From Podospora anserina (taxonomy: Eukaryota): 64,000 nt of DNA. Positions within the stretch are counted from its first letter, which is position 1. Each line of letters begins with the position of its first letter. Shown here piece by piece: positions 2,268 to 30,423 of the stretch. The DNA lies in assembly GCA_017654855.1 (NCBI GenBank), contig CM030333.1, forward strand, positions 4,898,001 through 4,962,000, given 5' to 3'. The notes under the pieces were generated by a model that was given only the letters and a program-made list of their open reading frames with translations, had not been told where the DNA came from and searched no databases. The translations under genes were made by a program, and so were the position numbers.

Positions 2268-2954
2268 CTTGACCGATGCGAGCTGATGAAAGCTTTATTG
2301 AAGGATTGTATGAGCGGATGGGAGGAGGACGAATCGGTAGATGCGCAATGTCAAAGATCGGGCAGTGGTGGTTGTTTTGGTGGTGGTGGTGTTGGTGTTG
2401 AGCAGGCGGCAAGGAGCTTCGTTCGTCGTTGCGGTTGGCCTGGCAGGGAAGCTCCAGCTGCCGATCGACGCGTTGCTCTGCTTGCCTGGAGAAGGCTGAC
2501 GGCCAGCTGTTGCGGGCGGTCTGGCTGCCTTGAAAGTTAGGCATTAATTAGAAAGCAGATCTTGGCTTAAGTGGCTGGGGCCCAAGCTTCAATGGTAGTG
2601 GGGTTGCCCCACATTCTTAACTTCTGCTCTGTTATCGGGCGCAAGACCCCTGTATTGGGCGCTGATAAGCACTGGCGGAACAGAAATTTGCTGCAGGCTG
2701 TTTCTCATTCAACTGGCAGCATCGACACAAACACCCAATAGAACTCACGACATCGCCAAACGGCCCCAATATTTCTTGCATTCGGAAACTCTTGGGTCTT
2801 GTTCAAAACAGCGCTACTCGGCTCAATTTGCACTTTTGCCGTTTCTGTGGGAACCCGCGCCCCTGTCCGTCCTACGTCGTCTGTCTCGGTCCAGGGCTTT
2901 TTTTTCTTCACCTCGGTCGACACCTGTTTGCCTGCTTCTTCTTTGCTGGCCAAC

Positions 2955-4211
2955 ATGTCCGCTCGTGTCCCGGCCTGGAAGCGATTGGGCCTCAAGCTCA
3001 AGGGAGCATCCGACGAGAGCCCTGTCTTGAGCTCGACCGGCCCCAATGCCAATTCCGCTTCGCAAGTAAACGGCAGCCCTGTGAGCGCGCTCAAGAGAAA
3101 GCAACCACTATATCAGTCGCCGGCCAACAGCTATAACAGCAATTCGTATGCGCAAACTCCCAACAAGAGGTTCCGAGCCGACGAAGAAACTCCTGGATCA
3201 CAAAGGAAATCTGTGTCCTTCACAGCGGACACCAAGAAGACATCCGTCGAACCAGCAAAGAAGAAGGCAAAGAAAAAGAAGGCCAAGAAGCCAGCGCAAC
3301 CTGTTGCCAAACCCGAGACGAACCTTGAACCATCCCTCGATTACCTTCGCCAGTGGCACACTGCGCGCGACTCGTGGAAGTTCAACAAGAACCACCAGAC
3401 ATTGCTCATTAAGTATCTCTTTGACGGCGACAAGATCCCGTCAGCCGATATTCCAATTTTCTACCAATATATCAGCGACCTCAAGGGAGGCGTGCGGACG
3501 AGGTTACGAGAGACGGCGGTGGAGATCAAGAAGAAAGATATGGAGCAGGGTGTCAGCGCTTTCCCTGCCGACACCAAGGACAAGGCCACCAAGCAGACAG
3601 AGTACGAGGAGGTTATCTCGCGATTTCTTGAGGACCTGCAACAGCATCAAAAGCAACGTCAGTCTACTGGTACCAATGCCAATGGCAAGCGCCCATTAGA
3701 GGAGGTACAATATGTCATCAGAACCGTGGACCCTCTGGTCAAGCAGCGAGCACTGAGGCGCATCCGCGCTGAGATCGTGGCCGTAGAATTAGCGTCGGAC
3801 AGTGAGGAGAGCACCATAACATCGACAGCCGCTGCGTCAACTATCACTTCTTCCTCTTCGTCATCGTCAGGACAGGAGAACGCAGTCGCAGACAAGAGAA
3901 CACGCAGTGATGATGATTCACAACAGCCTGCCAAGAAGCGCAGACTGAGAAAAGTACGCAATATCAGCGATGATGAGAGCAGCAGCTCGTCCGAGTCGGA
4001 AAGTGATAGCTCTGACGACGATGACGATGACGAAGATGAGAACATGGCGGATGCGCCGAATGGTAAGGAGGATGAGGAAACGAGTAGCAGCAGCTCGTCC
4101 TCCTCCGAGTCTTCATCAGAGGATGAGTCTGATGATGAAGAGGAAGCAGATGATGGGAGCGATTCTGACAGCAGCGAAAGTAGCGAGAGTAGTGAGAGTG
4201 ATTCGGACTGA
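2955..4211 (+). CDS. WKF-domain (DUF2373-like) nucleolar/RNA-binding protein with acidic Ser/Asp/Glu tail
   Basis: ATG at 2955 (MSARVPAWKRLGLKLK), a lysine-rich NLS-like stretch, the motif YLRQW...SWKFNKNHQTLL...YISDLKGGVRTRL and a low-complexity S/D/E C-terminus. Divergent from the proteasome gene. Confidence 0.8.
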   Translation: MSARVPAWKRLGLKLKGASDESPVLSSTGPNANSASQVNGSPVSALKRKQPLYQSPANSYNSNSYAQTPNKRFRADEETPGSQRKSVSFTADTKKTSVEPAKKKAKKKKAKKPAQPVAKPETNLEPSLDYLRQWHTARDSWKFNKNHQTLLIKYLFDGDKIPSADIPIFYQYISDLKGGVRTRLRETAVEIKKKDMEQGVSAFPADTKDKATKQTEYEEVISRFLEDLQQHQKQRQSTGTNANGKRPLEEVQYVIRTVDPLVKQRALRRIRAEIVAVELASDSEESTITSTAAASTITSSSSSSSGQENAVADKRTRSDDDSQQPAKKRRLRKVRNISDDESSSSSESESDSSDDDDDDEDENMADAPNGKEDEETSSSSSSSSESSSEDESDDEEEADDGSDSDSSESSESSESDSD

Positions 4212-4819: not shown

Positions 4820-6136
4820 TCATGCCTCCTCCATCAGACTCCCCACCTCAAGAAGTCCAACACACTCTCCCCGATCCATAACAGCGACAATCGCATTATC
4901 CTCATACTGCCCATCCCCAAGCGCAACCCTCATCCCCAGCACCCACTCGGCCGCCTTTTCCACGCTCGAGTCGGCAGCAACAGGCACAAACTCCTTCTTG
5001 CTCGTCACCAGCCACCCCTTCAGCTCCTCCAACCTGGTCACCAGATCCGCCGAGTCCAGCTTCCTGATCCGCCTGGGGGAGATAACATCCCCGGTCTGCA
5101 ACCTCACCCACCCCGAAGGCGAGGCATAGCCCGCCCTGAGCACATCCGCACCCGTAGCCGTCTTTTCTGGGGGGGTATTCAGGAGCGGAATCATCTCCAT
5201 TCGCACCGCCAGTTCCCTCGCGCTCTTTTCACTCGAGCTTGGCTTCCTCAGTGCAGCCCCGATCGCGCCGCCGGGGTGATTTTTGGCAAACACGCTCGCC
5301 ACGCTGGGGTGTAGCTCCCTGCTGGCGACGATTGCGAGCGCATCCCCTACCGTCAGCGCCACCGTCGTGGAGGTTGTTGGTGCCGACACGCCAAAGGACT
5401 TTGTCTCTGGCTCGTGGATCGGTGCGGGAAGAAGGATGGTGTCGGGGCGGTGCTTGATCAGCTCGCATGTTTCCGGGCGGGTGTGAGACGTCAAGAGGAT
5501 GAGAGGAAGTGACTTGTCGAGGTGAGGGAGAAGCGTCAGGAGCTCGGGGGTTTTGCCGGAGAAGGTGATCAGCAAGAAGGTGTCGCGGGGGCCGATCTGG
5601 CCCAGATCGCCGTGGAGGGCCTCGGTGGGGTGGAGAAAAACGGCTTGGATGGCGAGCGAGTTGAAGGTTGCGACGAGCTTCTTGGCGATGTGCCCTGACT
5701 TGCCGACGCCTATTACTACTATCTTGCCGTCTGTCGCTCCTCGGCTGTGGGAGTGGTGTTGGTGGTGGGGGTATTTGGGGTGGTTGCAGCGGGTGATGGC
5801 CTCAACGGCGCGGTTGAAGCCTTCGCGGGCGAGACGGTCGGTGGAGTAGAGCGCCGTCAGGTTCTGCAGGGCAGTGGTCTCGGTGGAGAGGACGTGGACG
5901 GCGTTGGAGAGACGCTCTTCGACGGCGAGCTTCTCGTCGGCGACGGCAATGGCCGGCTGGGAGAGGGAGAGGGCCTCGATCGGCATGCCATTGCAAAAGT
6001 CATCGTCCTCGGCGGGTGTGATGGGGGACGGAGGGGACAGTGGGGGGATGGTTGAGAAGGTCGGAGGCATCTGGCGGAGGAGGTAAACCTCGCTGTTGTG
6101 GACGGGAGTGCGCCCGTGCTGGCGCTGTTCAACCAT
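4820..6136 (-). CDS. SIS-domain sugar-phosphate isomerase, KpsF/GutQ-like
   Basis: Motifs [62 protein letters not shown] and NHPGGAIG. Start taken at MVEQRQH (6136), which is uncertain. Confidence 0.88.
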
Positions 6137-6647
6137 TTTGCCGCAGTGTTTCTTCTTCCGTCCTACAACGAGCGCACTTGCAAAACTCCCTCTCCTGCTA
6201 GACAATTCCTCCCTTCTTCTGCCTCTGTTTTTTTGTTCCCACTGTTTCAATTCCTTCTAGAAGTGTTTTTCTTTCGAATCGGCGCGAGTCGCTCGTGGGC
6301 CACGGCTCACCGAATGCCTGGGGTGGAGAATTGGACTCGGGTTTCCACGGGTCTGGGAAGTACCGGTAAGGGCACCCCTTCGAAAGGATCAAGTTTGCAA
6401 CTGGCACAACTTTGACCAAAAGGTAAAGCTTGAGTGTACCGAAGGAGCGGTAAAGAGATGAACTTCTTGTTCTGAAAGAAGATGAGAGAGTCGGTCAATC
6501 TATCGACCGAATTGCTGACGATGTCCGTCTGATCCGTTCTATCCGCGGTATTATAGTCGCCCCGAAGTCTTGATCTGTATGTGAATGGTGGGGATTTGGT
6601 GGAGGGGTACTTTGATGTTGGTCCCTTGAATACGACGTCCGTTCTCG

Positions 6648-21492: not shown

Positions 21493-22581
21493 ATGGCTGT
21501 CGGAACGCTCTCTCTCTTTTTCCCCGTCTTCATCCCGGCCGCCACAGCGGGATTGGTCTATGCTGGTCACCGCGCAACTTACCTCAACTGGAGGGCGATC
21601 TTGACCGAGTTCCTCACGGGACCTGGTCGGACAAGTCGGATCCTACTTCTGCTGTTTTTGGGTCTCAACTGGAAGAGCTTGCCCCTTGGGTGGACGGTAT
21701 GTATCTCGTGATATTACCTGGTGACACCAAGCTGACATTTGCGCCGCTAGGTTCGGATCTTCCATTCCTTCATTTTCCACTTCGCGCGCCGCCCAAAGAC
21801 TCTTCCTCAGCGCGCCCTCTTCCACTACAGCGTTACCTCCTCTCGTACCTCTCTCCTCGAAACCGACTACAACTTCCACAAGTCCAACTCGACCTACTTT
21901 GCCGATGTCGACGTTTCGCGTTCCCACCTGGTCACTCATCTGCTGGGCCCATCCATGCCAATCATTGGCGACAACGAGAAGAACAAGCTGGTTCTGGACA
22001 AGGATGGCAAGGTGATTAAGGGGAGCTTTGGCATAGGCCTGGGAGCCGTCTTTTGCTCTTTCCGCCGCGAGATTGGCCCCATGCAAGGTTACGAGATGTG
22101 GAGCAGAATCGTGAGCTGGGATCGCAAGTGGCTTTACATTGTGACGCACTTTGTTGTCAAGGGCAAGGTCAAGCCTACCAGCTGGGACGGCAGGTGGAAG
22201 GGTCCGACACGCAGCAAGATCCAAAAGGCCGAGGATGGGTCGGCCGTGGAGGAGCCGGATTGGAGCAAGTACATTCACGCCACTGCCATCAGCAAGTACG
22301 TGTTCAAGCTAGGGCGCTTCACCATTCACCCTTCGATCATGATCCAGGCTGGTGGCTTGTTGCCCGAGAGACCAGGTGGCTGGAGAGGTGGTGAGGATGA
22401 CTGCGGAGACCTGGTTGACTTGGGAGAGATCGATGCTGAGGGCGAGTGGGACTGGAAGAAGGTTGAGGCTGAGCGGAGAAAGGGTCTGGATTATGCTAAT
22501 CACTTTGGGGCGTTGGACGGCACGAATCTTTTGTTTGATGGTGGCGAGGATGGCGCTATTGGCAACTTCCCTATTGGTTAA
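21493..22581 (+). CDS. Membrane-anchored hotdog-fold thioesterase-like protein (THEM6-like), 2 exons
   Basis: Hydrophobic N-terminus. Intron 21697-21750 (GTATGT..CTAG) gives LETDYNFHKSNSTYFADVDVSRSHL and later FRREIGPMQGYEMWSRIVSWDRKWLYIVTHF. Confidence 0.8.
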
Positions 22582-23375: not shown

Positions 23376-24180
23376 TTCGAACTAGATGAGTTTTTTGACA
23401 TCGATATTCTGTTTCAAAAAGCAAAAAGCCTGGTGTCTTGATGGGGAAGTAGGGGATCGCGGCTCTCTTATCATTGCTGGACAGTGTTATTATATGCAGT
23501 CTCACATATCGGATACAACGGCACACTGTGGACTTTCGGACCACACATGAATTTCGTGCGCCTAAATACACACGGCAATAAACATCTGATGTGATGAAGT
23601 GAGTACCTAATCTGATGTTCTTCGGATATGTCGAGACTATCTCTCATACTTGTGGGTTCAATGCAGTGAGGGTTAGGGTTATTATGTCTACGCGTTTAGG
23701 GCCTTCAGGGGCTCAGGGGGTTGACTCGCAGACGAGTAAGGGGTAACACATGGGGCCAGAGCAACACTGAAAGTCCACATTTAAAATGTACAAAACCTGA
23801 CTCGTTTTACCAACACTTTCAAAGCTATTTCCACAGCTTTGATATGGGATCCTCAATTTTGTCAACAGCAAGAAGTCGTCGCTGGAATGCAGACCCGACA
23901 TGCAATTATGCGGTCACGGCGCCGAGACAAGATGCCTCGGCAAACCTCCGGCATCGCCTTCACATTCTCCAACGGGAGTGGGTTCCCGATTCCACATCTC
24001 GTTTCTAGTCAATCCGAACAATCGATATGGTTGATATCGCAATCCCCACTGCAATTCTCTAGTATTTCAGCCACTCACTCACATATTTTTGCCATCACGA
24101 CTCATTCATTCTTGATCCGTACATCCCGGTGGCCTCTACCTATAATTCTCAAACGTAACCCCTGACCGCAGCACGACAAA

Positions 24181-24903
24181 ATGGCATCCTCCAAAGCCTC
24201 ACCATCACCACCACCATCAACAACCGAAAGTAAACAACAAAACCCACAATCAGAAGAAATGGTCACCCCAACCGCCTCAGACATCTCCTCCGTCCTCGAC
24301 TCCCCGGCCAACAAGGCCCAAGAAGCCCACCACATCGCCTTCTTCAATTCAATACCCTGGTGCTCCTCCCTCCTCGGCTCCAACCCCAACCTCATCATCT
24401 CCCAGTCCGTCTCCCGCATCATCCGCCCGTCTGGGTGCGAGGAGGACGCGCTCATCTCGCAGACGCTAAACTCGCCGGACGCCATCCCGGCCTACATCAC
24501 TTTTTACTCTCCCCCTCCCAAACCGACGGATTATGTCAATGAGGTCAAGTCGCTTATTGCCTTGGGACCGAAGGTGAATGGGTGGGAGGGTATCTGCCAT
24601 GGGGGGATTGTCATGACGCTTTTGGATGAGGTGATGGGGCAGATTTTTGCGGTCAACAAGGACAGCGGGGCGATGGGGAGCAAGATGCCGCTTTTGACGG
24701 GGTATCTGAACACTGAGTTTAAGAGGCCTGTGAGAACAGGGACGAAGGAGAAGCCGGCGATTGTGTTGGTTGTTGCTAGGATGACCAAGATCGAGGGAAG
24801 GAAGCACTTTTGCGAGGGGGTGGTGTATGGGGATGAGGAGGGGAGGAATGAGCTGGCGAGGGCGGAGGCCTTGTTTGTGCAGTTGAGGGAGCAGAAGCTG
24901 TGA
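24181..24903 (+). CDS. PaaI/4HBT-type hotdog thioesterase superfamily protein
   Basis: Intronless 240-aa ORF with NGWEGICHGGIVMTLLDEVMG, TGYLNTEFKRPV, EGRK and ARAEALFV. Confidence 0.88.
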   Translation: MASSKASPSPPPSTTESKQQNPQSEEMVTPTASDISSVLDSPANKAQEAHHIAFFNSIPWCSSLLGSNPNLIISQSVSRIIRPSGCEEDALISQTLNSPDAIPAYITFYSPPPKPTDYVNEVKSLIALGPKVNGWEGICHGGIVMTLLDEVMGQIFAVNKDSGAMGSKMPLLTGYLNTEFKRPVRTGTKEKPAIVLVVARMTKIEGRKHFCEGVVYGDEEGRNELARAEALFVQLREQKL

Positions 24904-25724: not shown

Positions 25725-27962
25725 TCACTCGCAACCCTCCACATCGGGGTCAACATCAGTTTCCCCATCACTAATCTCTGTCTTGCTGCTGATTGAACCA
25801 TCAATGTCAATCGTAAAGGCCTTCTGGACTTCCTCTCCCAGCCTGATGACGTCTCGCCTGCTCTCTCTGTTCACAACCAGCAGATGAGCAACATATGTCC
25901 TTGCCCCATCTGTGTAAAGATCAACCTTGTCTCCGGGGACACAATAGTCAACGCCCAGAACAATCTTGTCTGCCAGGTCCGGTCTTCGGCGCTTGAGCTC
26001 CTCGCATGGGGCTAGCTTTGACGGCCATTGCACAGTACCAGCGGCTGGAGCAGGAATGTATACCAGTCGAGACCAGTACTGTGCTCCCCTTTTCGAATCA
26101 TTGGTGTTGTCACCGAGCACATGGCTGTAGGGCCTAGTGGTCAGTCGTAACCTGTTCTTATCACCCGCAGCAGCCAGCATGTGTGCAGCAAAGTAGTCCA
26201 CGCCGTATGTATGACGTGTTGGAACAGTGACTCGGTATCCAGGCGGGCGGGCATTGATCTCGATCAGCTTGCACTCGGCTCCCGACTCGGGCAAAGATTT
26301 GGCGTGCTTGAGGACAAGATCGATCACGCCATCTTGCTTGCGGTACTCGAATGTGGAGCTCACCATTCTCGCCTCGACATGGAAGACACCGGTGCAAAAT
26401 CCTAGATTGACAAGAATATCTCGGAGTGTCGACTTTGCAATGTCTTGTTCCTGGGCAGGAAGGGCGGAAGGGAGAGTGAGGGCCTCTGGCGAAAAGGTTG
26501 AATGGACGGTAGCAGCGCTCGAGTCAGCATCGCAGGGTGGTTCATCTGCGATTTCGGAAAATAGAATCTCCCCGTCGAGAAGCACAAAGTTGACATCCAT
26601 TTCTGGACCATCAAAGAAGGGCTCAATGACGGCCGCACTGCCATGTCGAGAAGTAGCCTTTTGAACTGCAGTGGCAAGATCGGCGAGGTTGTTGACTTTT
26701 GACACGCATTCCGAGGACCACCCTTTGGTGGGTTTGACGATAAGGGGAAATCTGGGGATGAACTCGGCCTGCTGGTTACCTCCACTTGCTAGCAAAGACT
26801 CCAGCTCTCTCACATTGTGGACTCTGGCAGTCTGACAAGGAACGTTCTGTAGAAGCCGTGATCGATATTTGTCCACAGATGTCTCAAAGGCGGCCACGGG
26901 ACTGGTGGGGAGTCCCAATGCCTCTGCGACCTGAGCCACTGCCACAAAAAAGTTGTCCGACAGTGTCAAGACACCATGGATGGGAAGAGGGTAGCTGACA
27001 ATGGACTGGATGATGCGGTCAACCACTCCTGCATCCTCTGTCATGTCAGTGACAAGGAAGGCTTCCCGATGCATCTTGTTTTCTTCTGTGTCTGCTTGAA
27101 GCCAATGGCCCTCTTCGTCAACGATAACCAAGTCAAGACCTAATGCTTTGGCGGCACGATAGACTGGACCTCCTGCCGTGATGTTTGGTCTACCGCGAAT
27201 GAGCGCCACCCGTTGCCGGGGAATTGGTGTGCTGGAGAGCCATGGTGCATTGTGAAGACGATCACGCAGCTCCTCGGTCAGCCTTGTCCTGTAAATTTCC
27301 AAGTCGACGAACGAGACAGAGGTTGGCAAATCCTCCCATTGAACAACTCCAGCAGCCGACTCAACCAACGTGGCAAGATCATGTTCTGAGGTAACCGGGC
27401 CCGGGGCGGGACAAGTGGCAGAATATTTCTGTAGTGGGCGCAAAGGCTCATGGGTCCGTAATATCTTGTATGGGAAATCCTGGAGGCGAAGTTGGAGGAA
27501 GTCGGATCGGGTCACGTAGCCGTTGGTAGTAGGAAGAACAATGGTAAAAACAGATATGGCTGAAGCAGACCAACTGGGAGAGCCAAGACCGATGGTTTGT
27601 AGAGCCTCAATGAATGGGCTTGGCGGAGTGCTTCTGAGCCCGGTGCTTCCGATTCCGTTGTGTTGAGAATAGGGTTGGGATGGGTTTTGCAGAGCTGAAG
27701 ATTGTGAAGAGGATGGGAAAACCACCACGTTGGCGATGGAATACAGCTCGCAGAGGGGAATAACCTCGCCAAACAAGGGCCGATAGAGATTGGTTGGCCC
27801 TGCAGAGATTTTAGCAATGCTCACTTGGCGGACAGGAAGAAGGGCTGGCTGTTTCTTACTGCTCAGAGGTTGTTGTGTAAAGGTAGATGTAACCGATGAG
27901 ATGCTGCTGGTCAGTTTATGGCCCAGACTGGCCCTTTCACCAGAGAATGTTCCTACTGCCAT
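25725..27962 (-). CDS. ATP-grasp amino-acid ligase (L-amino acid ligase / carnosine synthase / fungal FsqD-like)
   Basis: Intronless 745-aa ORF with ALGLDLVIVD, VAEALGLPT, DKYRSR, PLIVKPTKGWSSECVSKV, IEPFFDGPEMDVN, GVFHVEAR and LIEINARPPG (ATP-grasp ExNxR). Confidence 0.9.
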   Translation of the reverse strand: MAVGTFSGERASLGHKLTSSISSVTSTFTQQPLSSKKQPALLPVRQVSIAKISAGPTNLYRPLFGEVIPLCELYSIANVVVFPSSSQSSALQNPSQPYSQHNGIGSTGLRSTPPSPFIEALQTIGLGSPSWSASAISVFTIVLPTTNGYVTRSDFLQLRLQDFPYKILRTHEPLRPLQKYSATCPAPGPVTSEHDLATLVESAAGVVQWEDLPTSVSFVDLEIYRTRLTEELRDRLHNAPWLSSTPIPRQRVALIRGRPNITAGGPVYRAAKALGLDLVIVDEEGHWLQADTEENKMHREAFLVTDMTEDAGVVDRIIQSIVSYPLPIHGVLTLSDNFFVAVAQVAEALGLPTSPVAAFETSVDKYRSRLLQNVPCQTARVHNVRELESLLASGGNQQAEFIPRFPLIVKPTKGWSSECVSKVNNLADLATAVQKATSRHGSAAVIEPFFDGPEMDVNFVLLDGEILFSEIADEPPCDADSSAATVHSTFSPEALTLPSALPAQEQDIAKSTLRDILVNLGFCTGVFHVEARMVSSTFEYRKQDGVIDLVLKHAKSLPESGAECKLIEINARPPGYRVTVPTRHTYGVDYFAAHMLAAAGDKNRLRLTTRPYSHVLGDNTNDSKRGAQYWSRLVYIPAPAAGTVQWPSKLAPCEELKRRRPDLADKIVLGVDYCVPGDKVDLYTDGARTYVAHLLVVNRESRRDVIRLGEEVQKAFTIDIDGSISSKTEISDGETDVDPDVEGCE

Positions 27963-28397
27963 GTTGATGCCACGATGTTGAACAGTGGATCGTTTGGTGA
28001 GTCAGAGAACAGAGAAAGAGCAAGAGTGGGAAGGTTTTGGGGACGGAGGTGAGTGTGTTGGAATCAGGAGCAGAAAAAGGGCGAGAGTTGAGGGAAAAGA
28101 AGGCAACTTGGCAAGAGCAAGGCGACAATGGGACAGGCTGGATATTTTGTTGCAAAAAAGGATGCCACGACCAGACCACCAAACGAGGGTTGCTCACCGC
28201 TGGACCCGGACCTAAAGAAGATTCCAAGACATCCAATGCCGCGGAAGCAGTGGAACAGGGCACACAATACCTAGCTTGCATCGGCTGCGTCATGGGGGCA
28301 CGCAGCAGTACTGAGACGTCGATATTGGCACGGCATGACGGGAGTGAGACTCACGGGCTGATTGAGCCGGAGACGGAGATTGATCTAGAGGGTGAGA

Positions 28398-28913
28398 ACC
28401 TTGATGGGCTCCATCTGATAATCTGCGATGATCTGATAAGCAAATTTAGACCCACTTGTGCCCTTGCGACCCCGGCCACACCCCTATCTCCTTCCCCTGT
28501 GTTCCCGTGCCTGGCCCTTTCCTTTTTCTCAACGTCTGTGCCCCCTTGCCTGTGGATTGCTCTTGCCCCAAATATTAAATGCTCAACCCCGTACCTTCCG
28601 GCAGAGCAAGCAACAACGGCTCCGTTAGGACTTGCCATAGGAAAGAATGGAGCCGATACCGCAGCAGACACAGAGAAGAGAGGTGACATTGGGCCACGAC
28701 CGAGTGAAACATGCGGCTTCGGATAAAATTTGTCCAGACAGCCAAGAACCTTGACGGCTGGAATCAGACACCTCAGTGTGCACCTTGATGGCCATATTCT
28801 GCGGCTTCAGCATTAAAAGATGATCAAAACGGCTGGTTGGATCCTCTGCGGAGGGCTTCATCTCCTTCCCAAATTGACTGACGGCCTCAAAAAAAAATAG
28901 CGCTCATCAAGGG
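28398..28913. promoter_or_regulatory. Bidirectional promoter with candidate iron-GATA (SreA/SRE) and zinc (ZafA/Zap1) response elements
   Basis: ATCTGATAA at 28413-28421 and 28431-28439. ACCTTGA(T/C)GG (CCRTCAAGGT on the - strand) at 28398-28407, 28748-28757 and 28782-28791, plus a near match CATCAAGGG at 28905-28913. Confidence 0.62.
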
Positions 28914-29314
28914 GAATGGAACACCGCTTGTCTAACAAACATGCGTCTCGTCCGGTCCTATGTGGGCACCCTGCGGGCTGATCTGCAGGTGCAGAGGCTG
29001 CAGCAGATATAGAGCGTGATGCTGCTGTTTACTTTGGGAGGTTTGCTGCTTGCGTGCAATTCCACCCTTCTCGAAGAGCAGCAATTTCCATGTTGTTGAG
29101 ATCATCGGTCACACACTGCCACCGAGACCATCTCTGAGCAACTGCCACCACAATAGTCACCACACTTGTATCTCTTCCTGAGTGCCTATATCAAGCAGCA
29201 GCAACACTCTTGCCGCCATATCTTGAGTGACAAACCCTCACGGAATCTATTATCCCGAACACACATCTCAACACTCACAGCCGCACGCTCCGTCATCCGG
29301 TTTCACCCGTCACC

Positions 29315-30423
29315 ATGCCTCTTCTTGCCTCCTGGCTGCGCATTGGTAGCCCCACAAAAAAGGTCGACGCATGTTCTCGTTCGTCCCAGGATTCTTTAAC
29401 TATTGTTGAGAAAGCCGACATCCTTCAGAGCCAGAAGGCAGATGCCAGGGAGGAAAAGGTTCAGTGGCTCGTCCGGAGTATCGTCAACACCCACACCGAG
29501 CTACTCAAGCTTCCGCACCTTCGTCCAGCGCCAGCCATCAATAAGCTCTTGGGTAACCTTGTCGCCATCTGCAGCGAGATCCACGACCAAGATATTGTAG
29601 ACAAGGTGTGTCGAACTCATCACGGGAAACGTGGAAGACACGAGCTGACAAAGCCAAGGTTTTACAAAATGTGAGCGTCCAGGCTGTGTTACCGTCTCTT
29701 AGACAGATCTGTGCCCAGTCAGAATCATGTCTTGAGCTTCACTGGGCCGAACACATTCTGGAAGGCCAGACCCAGCAAGAAGTCGTCGAGCGCCTCGAGA
29801 GTTTTCCATACTATGAGAACTATGAGGATTTGACCCGACTAGAAGTCTGCTCCATCCTCTCGGCGACAAAAAAGGCACCGCGACGAGTTGCCTTCATCGG
29901 CTCCGGCCCGCTCCCTCTCACCTCGCTATGCCTTTTGCAGGCTCTCAAGAATGATGTGGCAGTGAGAAGCTTGACACAGCCAACCACCAACAACACCACC
30001 GCCACAGACAACGCAGCGAATCAGGAGCCAATTGTCCTCAACGTCGACTACGATGAAGCGGCTATCTCTGCGTCTCTCAAGTTGAGCCTTGCTCTGGGAG
30101 AGAGGGGGAATGGAATGGAATTCATCTGTGCTGAGGCAACCTCGGCTTCGGCGTCACGAGATCTCAGCGAGTTTGACGTCGTGTACATGGCTGCGTTGGT
30201 GGGAGTTACGCAGACAGACAAGGAGAAGATCATGCTGGAAGTGATCAGTCGGATGAGGAGAGGGGCGCTACTGGTTGTCCGCAGCAGTTGGGGCTTGAGG
30301 TCATGCTTATACCCAGAGGTCGACCTTGCAACTGAGACACTGCTGAAGAGGCTTGAGCCCTGTGTGGTAGTACATCCCTATAATCAGGTGGTCAACTCAG
30401 TCATCGTTGCGAGAGTGCGGTAG
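29315..30423 (+). CDS. NAS: Nicotianamine synthase (SAM-dependent aminocarboxypropyl transferase), 2 exons
   Basis: Exon 1 29315-29605, intron 29606-29658, exon 2 to 30423. NAS motifs LELHWA, FPYYENYEDLTRLE, RVAFIGSGPLPLTS, FDVVYMAALVG, GALLVVRS..GLRSCLYP and HPYNQVVNSVIVAR. Confidence 0.93.

Follow-up and report, generated by a model that had tools for sequence, protein, structure and literature searches.

Two divergent promoters of Aspergillus fumigatus are the closest described counterparts of the region analyzed here. The first lies between aspf2 and zrfC, depends on the zinc regulator ZafA, and contains three ZR motifs; according to the available text of its description, mutation of the three cores lowered the activity of both reporters more than 500-fold and abolished induction (PMC6070888). 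The accessible portion of the same study identifies CARGGT as a core that is essential for ZafA binding, on the basis of electrophoretic mobility shift assays (EMSA) and footprinting in A. fumigatus, and reports that sites located less than 1.2 kb from an ATG tend to be functional, that at least three sites occur in just 1.2% of the motif-bearing genes of that species, and that its divergent pairs are co-regulated for spacing under 1,200 bp (PMC6070888). ZafA is also functional in the Sordariomycete Fusarium oxysporum. The part of that report available to us gives no motif (PMC6988419), and we found no published ZafA motif for the Sordariomycetes.

The second counterpart is the bidirectional ftrA-fetC promoter of the SreA regulon, in which, as described in the accessible part of the source, the 9-mer ATCAGATAA is combined with a second, inverted TGATAA (PMC10294635). 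The extended, partly palindromic 9-mer ATCWGATAA is the site of the iron repressor (PMC2610380, in its available portion, and PMC10500206). The sites used in vivo by Urbs1 of U. maydis and by Fep1 of S. pombe conform to this extended motif, as far as the available text of the SreA study relates (PMC2610380).

One of the two genes considered here encodes a nicotianamine synthase (NAS), an enzyme that is also present in Neurospora crassa. The N. crassa NAS transcript reportedly rises under zinc deficiency, a result said to have appeared in FEBS Letters in 2006; the promoter of that gene has, as far as we know, not been analyzed. Nicotianamine is an iron chelator in plants (PMC10341464), and its production is established in N. 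crassa according to the accessible part of PMC10248798. The N. crassa NAS (NCU09855; identifier from PMC6437048) comes from the same order and the orthologous enzyme family; over exon 2, it is 50% identical to the protein described below. The literature that we searched yielded no link between a fungal NAS and SreA, HapX, ZafA, or Zap1; the papers examined for such a link speak of nicotianamine in plants or bacteria. It also yielded no report of iron regulation or of an iron role of a fungal NAS, and nothing on nicotianamine together with ATP-grasp enzymes in fungi or on nicotianamine in Podospora. A search of articles returned no metal data for NCU09855, which is named in one of them, and no metal-stress expression or binding data for the gene pair examined here.

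The DNA that we analyzed is a stretch of 64,000 nucleotides from Podospora anserina, referred to below as the window. Protein matches place it in a filamentous ascomycete of the Sordariales, near Podospora, Apiosordaria, and Triangularia. It contains a NAS gene on the plus strand (29315..30423) that consists of exon 1 (29315-29605), a 53-nt intron (29606-29658), and exon 2 (29659-30423, including the stop codon). The encoded protein of 351 amino acids matches the NAS family of Pfam with an E value of 1.1e-54. Compared with the annotated 351-residue NAS of Podospora pseudocomata, exon 2 is 100% identical and exon 1 agrees at 96 of 97 residues, beginning with residue 1.

On the minus strand, a gene for an ATP-grasp ligase of the carnosine-synthase or L-amino-acid-ligase type (25725..27962; Pfam ATPgrasp_N and ATP-grasp_4) points away from NAS. 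Its ATG at 27962 was set by the N terminus MAVG, which is common to seven homologues in an alignment. The closest solved structure is that of the L-amino acid ligase 3vot (E = 1.7e-9), the best named homologues have 83 to 84% identity, and some orthologues bear the name "carnosine synthase 1." Within the reading frame, positions 27800-27859 (minus strand) form a 60-nt in-frame GT..AG interval, the 20 residues of which are missing from six of seven aligned homologues and retained in a 98% identical one (P0001). This interval is probably an intron, in which case the mature ligase would have about 725 rather than 745 amino acids. A profile scan of genome contigs found distant relatives of the ATP-grasp core, all of them bacterial, in five metagenome-assembled genomes (MAGs) of Actinomycetota and one of Burkholderiales; these six sequences (L001-L006) are 28 to 36% identical over approximately residues 261-638 at most. 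Two ORFs of the thioesterase superfamily (4HBT, 4HBT_2) lie just past the 3' end of the ligase gene, at 24166-24903 and 21751-22581, both on the plus strand.

The arrangement of the two genes is divergent, as originally predicted, with the ligase ATG at 27962 about 450 bp from a pair of GATA boxes and the NAS ATG at 29315. The spacer from ATG to ATG (27963..29314, 1,352 bp) is a candidate bidirectional promoter. A hidden gene or RNA within it was rejected: five of its ORFs match no Pfam family, and a scan of 27963-29314 gave no Rfam family and no tRNA. Among the 25 ORFs of the window scanned with Pfam, we found no other metal-related gene. Domain-bearing ORFs elsewhere in the window include a long one with a heterokaryon-incompatibility (HET) domain (45351-47417, minus strand) and others with DUF1996 (52527-53429), PAP2 (43162-44136), SIS (4820-6256), and WKF (2742-4211) domains; none of these is metal related.

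The neighborhood of NAS and the ligase extends beyond Podospora. Six species had positional locus tags in both of our protein lists, and in five of them (Mycothermus thermophilus, Remersonia thermophila, Hirsutella minnesotensis, Humicola hyalothermophila, and Cercophora sp. LCS_1) the NAS and ligase orthologues bear consecutive tags. In Ophiocordyceps camponoti-leonardi, the two are four tags apart. In many further species, the two orthologues lie on contigs of equal length. Judged by these tags, the pair is conserved from the Sordariales into the Hypocreales, where it is represented by Hirsutella minnesotensis. The earlier case for a metal-related role of the ligase had been built on the position of the GATA pair, which was taken as independent support because the pair is nearer to the ligase ATG. 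The position itself was borne out. As independent support it is weak, since an element in a shared promoter acts in both directions, as in the available account of ftrA-fetC (PMC10294635), and proximity does not tell which gene is the target. That the two genes have stayed neighbors in other species would be the better argument for a metal-related function of the ligase.

Each of the 62 CARGGT cores in the window was compared with the 15-bp A. fumigatus consensus DYYVYCARGGTVYYY, as it is given in the accessible part of PMC6070888; the authors of this consensus allow one substitution outside the core, and two for secondary sites. None of the cores was perfect, four had one flank substitution, and nine had two. 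The spacer holds three of the four one-substitution sites and one of the nine two-substitution sites, all on the minus strand. Site 1 (28394..28408, CCCATCAAGGTTCTC) has a CAAGGT core and two substitutions, and it stands 5 bp from the first GATA box. Site 2 (28744..28758, GCCGTCAAGGTTCTT) and site 3 (28778..28792, GCCATCAAGGTGCAC) have one substitution each. Site 4 (28964..28978, GCCCGCAGGGTGCCC) also has one substitution and has CAGGGT as its core; located 337 to 351 bp upstream of the NAS ATG, it is the zinc-type site nearest to NAS, and it was absent from the original prediction. The counts for sites 1 to 4 are thus 2, 1, 1, and 1, relative to a consensus that comes from a Eurotiomycete.

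Three of these sites had been recognized beforehand as copies of the 10-mer ACCTTGAYGG, beginning at 28398, 28748, and 28782. We recovered these three and no others in the window, a count that compares with 0.28 expected and was reached in none of 100 shuffles. The first copy ends at 28407, and the first GATA 9-mer begins after a gap of 5 bp, as the original prediction had it. Its reading of CAAGGT as the ZafA core likewise agrees with the literature, where CARGGT forms the indispensable core of the element footprinted with ZafA (PMC6070888, available portion), and the spacer sites fit the longer consensus as well as the core. By length alone, 1.3 CARGGT cores would be expected in the spacer, which contains four of the window's 62 (three CAAGGT and one CAGGGT). 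Over the window as a whole, CAAGGT occurs about as often as expected (36 copies versus 35.3).

On the plus strand, the four sites read as the 11-mers ACCTTGATGGG, ACCTTGACGGC, ACCTTGATGGC, and ACCCTGCGGGC and have the pattern ACCYTG..GG in common; four of the seven matches to this pattern in the window are in the spacer. The extra conserved bases coincide with the pyrimidine positions (YYVY) of the ZafA flank consensus. A protein of the Zap1 family would contact approximately 11 to 15 bp, which would explain why the copies have 10 bases in common and not 6. The sites lie 432 to 1,016 bp from the ligase ATG and 337 to 921 bp from the NAS ATG, within the rule of about 1.2 kb stated in the accessible text of PMC6070888. 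The spacer itself, at 1,352 bp, is slightly longer than the 1,200-bp limit within which co-regulated divergent pairs of A. fumigatus are reported there. A PacC-like GCCAAG (28741-28746) directly adjoins site 2, and at 28902-28913 the opposite strand reads CTCATCAAGGGG, which resembles the repeats except that a G replaces the essential last T of the core.

The GATA boxes form a direct repeat on the plus strand. Box 1 (28413..28421) and box 2 (28431..28439) are both exact copies of ATCTGATAA, 18 bp apart from start to start, as originally predicted, and both are of the extended SreA/SRE type in the sense of the available text of PMC2610380, which bears out the assignment of ATCWGATAA to SreA. 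These two copies are the sole exact ATCWGATAA matches in the window, in which 17 matches are found at a tolerance of one mismatch or less. Their number in the spacer exceeds the expectation by length (2 versus 0.04), and window-wide it is unremarkable, since 7 of 100 shuffles reach two copies of ATCTGATAA. Generic HGATAR is not enriched in the spacer (3 versus 2.9 expected), and it was scarcely enriched in the SreA study either, according to its accessible portion (PMC2610380). The signal is therefore specific to the ATC-extended form that the same text links to SreA, Urbs1, and Fep1 (PMC2610380). We rejected a tandem duplication as the origin of the pair. The sequences between and after the copies are unrelated, the nine bases that follow each copy differ, and nothing is common beyond the 9-mer, which makes a recent 18-bp duplication unlikely.

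Other candidate elements of the spacer were rejected. Neither the PacC hexamer GCCARG (3 versus 1.6 expected) nor the CCAAT box (3 versus 2.4 expected) is enriched. Copper control through the Mac1-type motif TTTGCKCR was also discarded: the spacer has no exact match and five matches with one mismatch, of which there are 131 window-wide versus 187 expected.

To put numbers on chance, we simulated sequences of spacer length (1,352 bp) as first-order Markov chains, 20,000 for each of two background models. Two or more ATCWGATAA sites were present in 1 and 7 of the 20,000 sequences, respectively. At least three ZafA-consensus sites with no more than one flank substitution occurred in 6 and 2 of 20,000, and at least four with no more than two substitutions occurred in 8 and 7. 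When 1,352-bp frames were slid along the window, 15 of 1,253 reached four zinc sites, and all 15 overlapped the spacer. As a control for the choice of motif, the columns of each motif were permuted 1,000 times and the matches were counted in the spacer. None of the 1,000 permuted ZafA motifs reached three sites with one substitution or four sites with two, and 1 of 1,000 permuted GATA 9-mers reached two copies. The clustering of the motifs and their fit to the longer consensus, not their window-wide counts, are far beyond chance. The composition of the window bears on those counts: GC content is 17 to 22% at 58001-64000, 38% at 48001-50000, and approximately 52% elsewhere, so that tallies of GATA and other AT-rich motifs over the whole window are inflated. 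AT-rich blocks of this kind are typical of repeat-degraded DNA in this fungal group.

Set beside the two Aspergillus promoters, the spacer combines features of both. Like aspf2-zrfC, it is one region that separates two divergent genes and contains several elements with a CAAGGT core less than 1.2 kb from both ATGs (PMC6070888, available portion). The genes differ: those of the A. fumigatus pair encode a ZIP transporter and a Pra1-like protein, those of the present locus NAS and an ATP-grasp ligase. The spacer has four sites, with one or two flank substitutions each and all on one strand, it has the SRE-type GATA pair in addition, and it is known from its sequence. The resemblance to ftrA-fetC consists in an exact ATCWGATAA with a second GATA nearby, within a promoter that in A. 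fumigatus is shared by two metal-acquisition genes (PMC10294635 and PMC2610380, as far as their available text goes). In the spacer, both boxes have the full nine bases, point in the same direction, and are 18 bp apart, whereas in the accessible account of ftrA-fetC a 9-mer is joined to an inverted TGATAA. The genes next to the spacer are not known iron-uptake genes: they encode NAS, identified by Pfam, and an ATP-grasp ligase.

The likeness to the yeast element is looser. The Zap1 element of S. cerevisiae is the 11-mer ACCTTNAAGGT, and the spacer sites have the same initial ACC and the same GG at positions 9 and 10 (PMC2535606, in its available part). Measured against ACCYYNAAGGT, with N counted as a match, sites 1 to 4 agree at 9, 9, 9, and 8 of 11 positions; all four lack the final T, and none conforms to the yeast consensus. 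The plus-strand 11-mer of site 4, ACCCTGCGGGC, is one base from ACCCTGCGGGT, a candidate yeast element in a table of the same source (PMC2535606, available portion). The exact palindromic yeast element has no match in the window, and we therefore claim a likeness only to the filamentous-fungal ZafA form.

Taken as a prediction from its motifs, control by both zinc and iron is the best reading of the spacer, and both genes probably respond to metal supply. The parts of this reading carry different weight. A zinc response through the CARGGT sites is likely, and the prospects of an iron response through the GATA pair are evenly balanced. The full proposal, that the spacer works as a promoter in both directions, responds to metals, and places NAS and the ligase jointly under zinc and iron control, is tentative, and we put its chance somewhat below even.

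The competing account to which we give the most weight, though it is doubtful, retains the zinc half of the proposal: the CARGGT cluster would be a real ZafA/Zap1 target, and the GATA pair would serve NIT2/AreA or a developmental or light-related GATA factor, or have no function. Two or more HGATAR sequences within approximately 30 bp constitute a classical strong site for NIT2/AreA, the single-finger nitrogen GATA factor. Both boxes contain TGATAA and are 18 bp apart, an arrangement that fits this pair rule too and does not separate SRE from NIT2/AreA. Zinc is, moreover, the only signal for which we know of a reported response of a fungal NAS, and the literature searched connects no fungal NAS with an iron regulator. 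TGATAA also satisfies the generic HGATAR, as this is defined in the available text of PMC2610380. Against these points stands the ATC extension, which alone would favor SRE over NIT2/AreA. Both copies have it, a single-finger factor does not need it, and its double occurrence would be a coincidence of approximately 1 in 4,096 if the copies are independent. A recent 18-bp duplication offers no explanation, given the unrelated flanks; two such 9-mers are as rare in the simulations as reported above (1 and 7 of 20,000), and the spacer shows no excess of generic GATA sites.

The zinc half can be questioned as well. If the ACCTTGAYGG repeats were real cis-elements of a different DNA-binding protein, their likeness to zinc elements would be coincidental. 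The three copies do have 10 bases in common, with 14 of 16 identical between copies 1 and 3, which is more than the 6-base ZafA core needs; no copy fully matches either the Aspergillus or the yeast consensus, in the form available to us, and no ZafA motif has been defined for the Sordariales. The extra common bases fall, however, exactly on the ZafA flank (YYVY) and on the second half of the yeast 11-mer (..GG.), as the accessible sources give them. A fourth site, with the CAGGGT core that the ZafA consensus permits, belongs to the same cluster, and the gene served makes a chelator of zinc and iron. We consider a different protein very improbable. That neither motif set functions, both being chance or neutral features chosen after the fact by a reader with metal motifs in mind, is also quite unlikely. 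The motifs were indeed found by eye, with freedom of choice, and the window-wide counts of ATCTGATAA and CAAGGT are unremarkable. Yet both motifs come from earlier literature, neither cluster was equaled in more than 8 of 20,000 simulated sequences, and the permuted motifs matched the clusters in 0 of 1,000 cases for ZafA and 1 of 1,000 for GATA. Both clusters, furthermore, occur in the window's only spacer to serve a gene for a metal chelator, with no other metal-related gene found by Pfam among the 25 ORFs scanned.

We infer factor binding, the direction of regulation, and the co-regulation of NAS and the ligase from the kinds of site present, and under dual zinc and iron control they would take the following form. 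In low zinc, the four Zap1/ZafA-type elements (28394-28978, on one strand) would recruit the ZafA/Zap1 orthologue, which would activate NAS and the ligase. When iron is sufficient, a two-finger repressor of the SRE/SreA type may occupy the GATA pair (28413-28439) and damp the same promoter, as such repressors do at genes for siderophores and for reductive iron uptake. Zinc site 1 and GATA box 1 are only 5 bp apart, and the two factors could therefore compete for DNA, although this is speculation. The spacer presents known kinds of cis-element in a promoter for which the literature searched describes none, and we regard it as a predicted new target of known regulator families.

A further step, which we consider unlikely but worth stating, concerns the product. 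NAS and the ligase might form a short pathway to nicotianamine or to an amino-acid-extended derivative that would act as a small-molecule metallophore in the Sordariales, and the promoter would integrate activation by a zinc sensor with repression by an iron sensor. Such a system would be a fungal one of the small-molecule, zincophore-like kind, regulated in part like a siderophore cluster. According to the available text of a 2017 review, the protein pair Pra1-Zrt1 is the sole zincophore system to have been proven in fungi (PMC5812535).

The analysis suggests a promoter that may link an uncharacterized, conserved NAS-ligase pair to metal sensing, with a small-molecule chelator pathway possibly under zinc and iron control. 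If this is true, the four CARGGT sites would be a first candidate set of ZafA-type elements in a member of the Sordariales and would help to calibrate genome-wide prediction of the zinc regulon there; if it is not, the locus amounts to a NAS gene plus a neighbor. The promoter would be a combinatorial one for zinc and iron, joining two regulons that have so far mostly been studied separately, and an uncharacterized ATP-grasp ligase would be switched by metal supply jointly with NAS. The locus would also open a testable way to ask why nicotianamine is produced by filamentous fungi at all.
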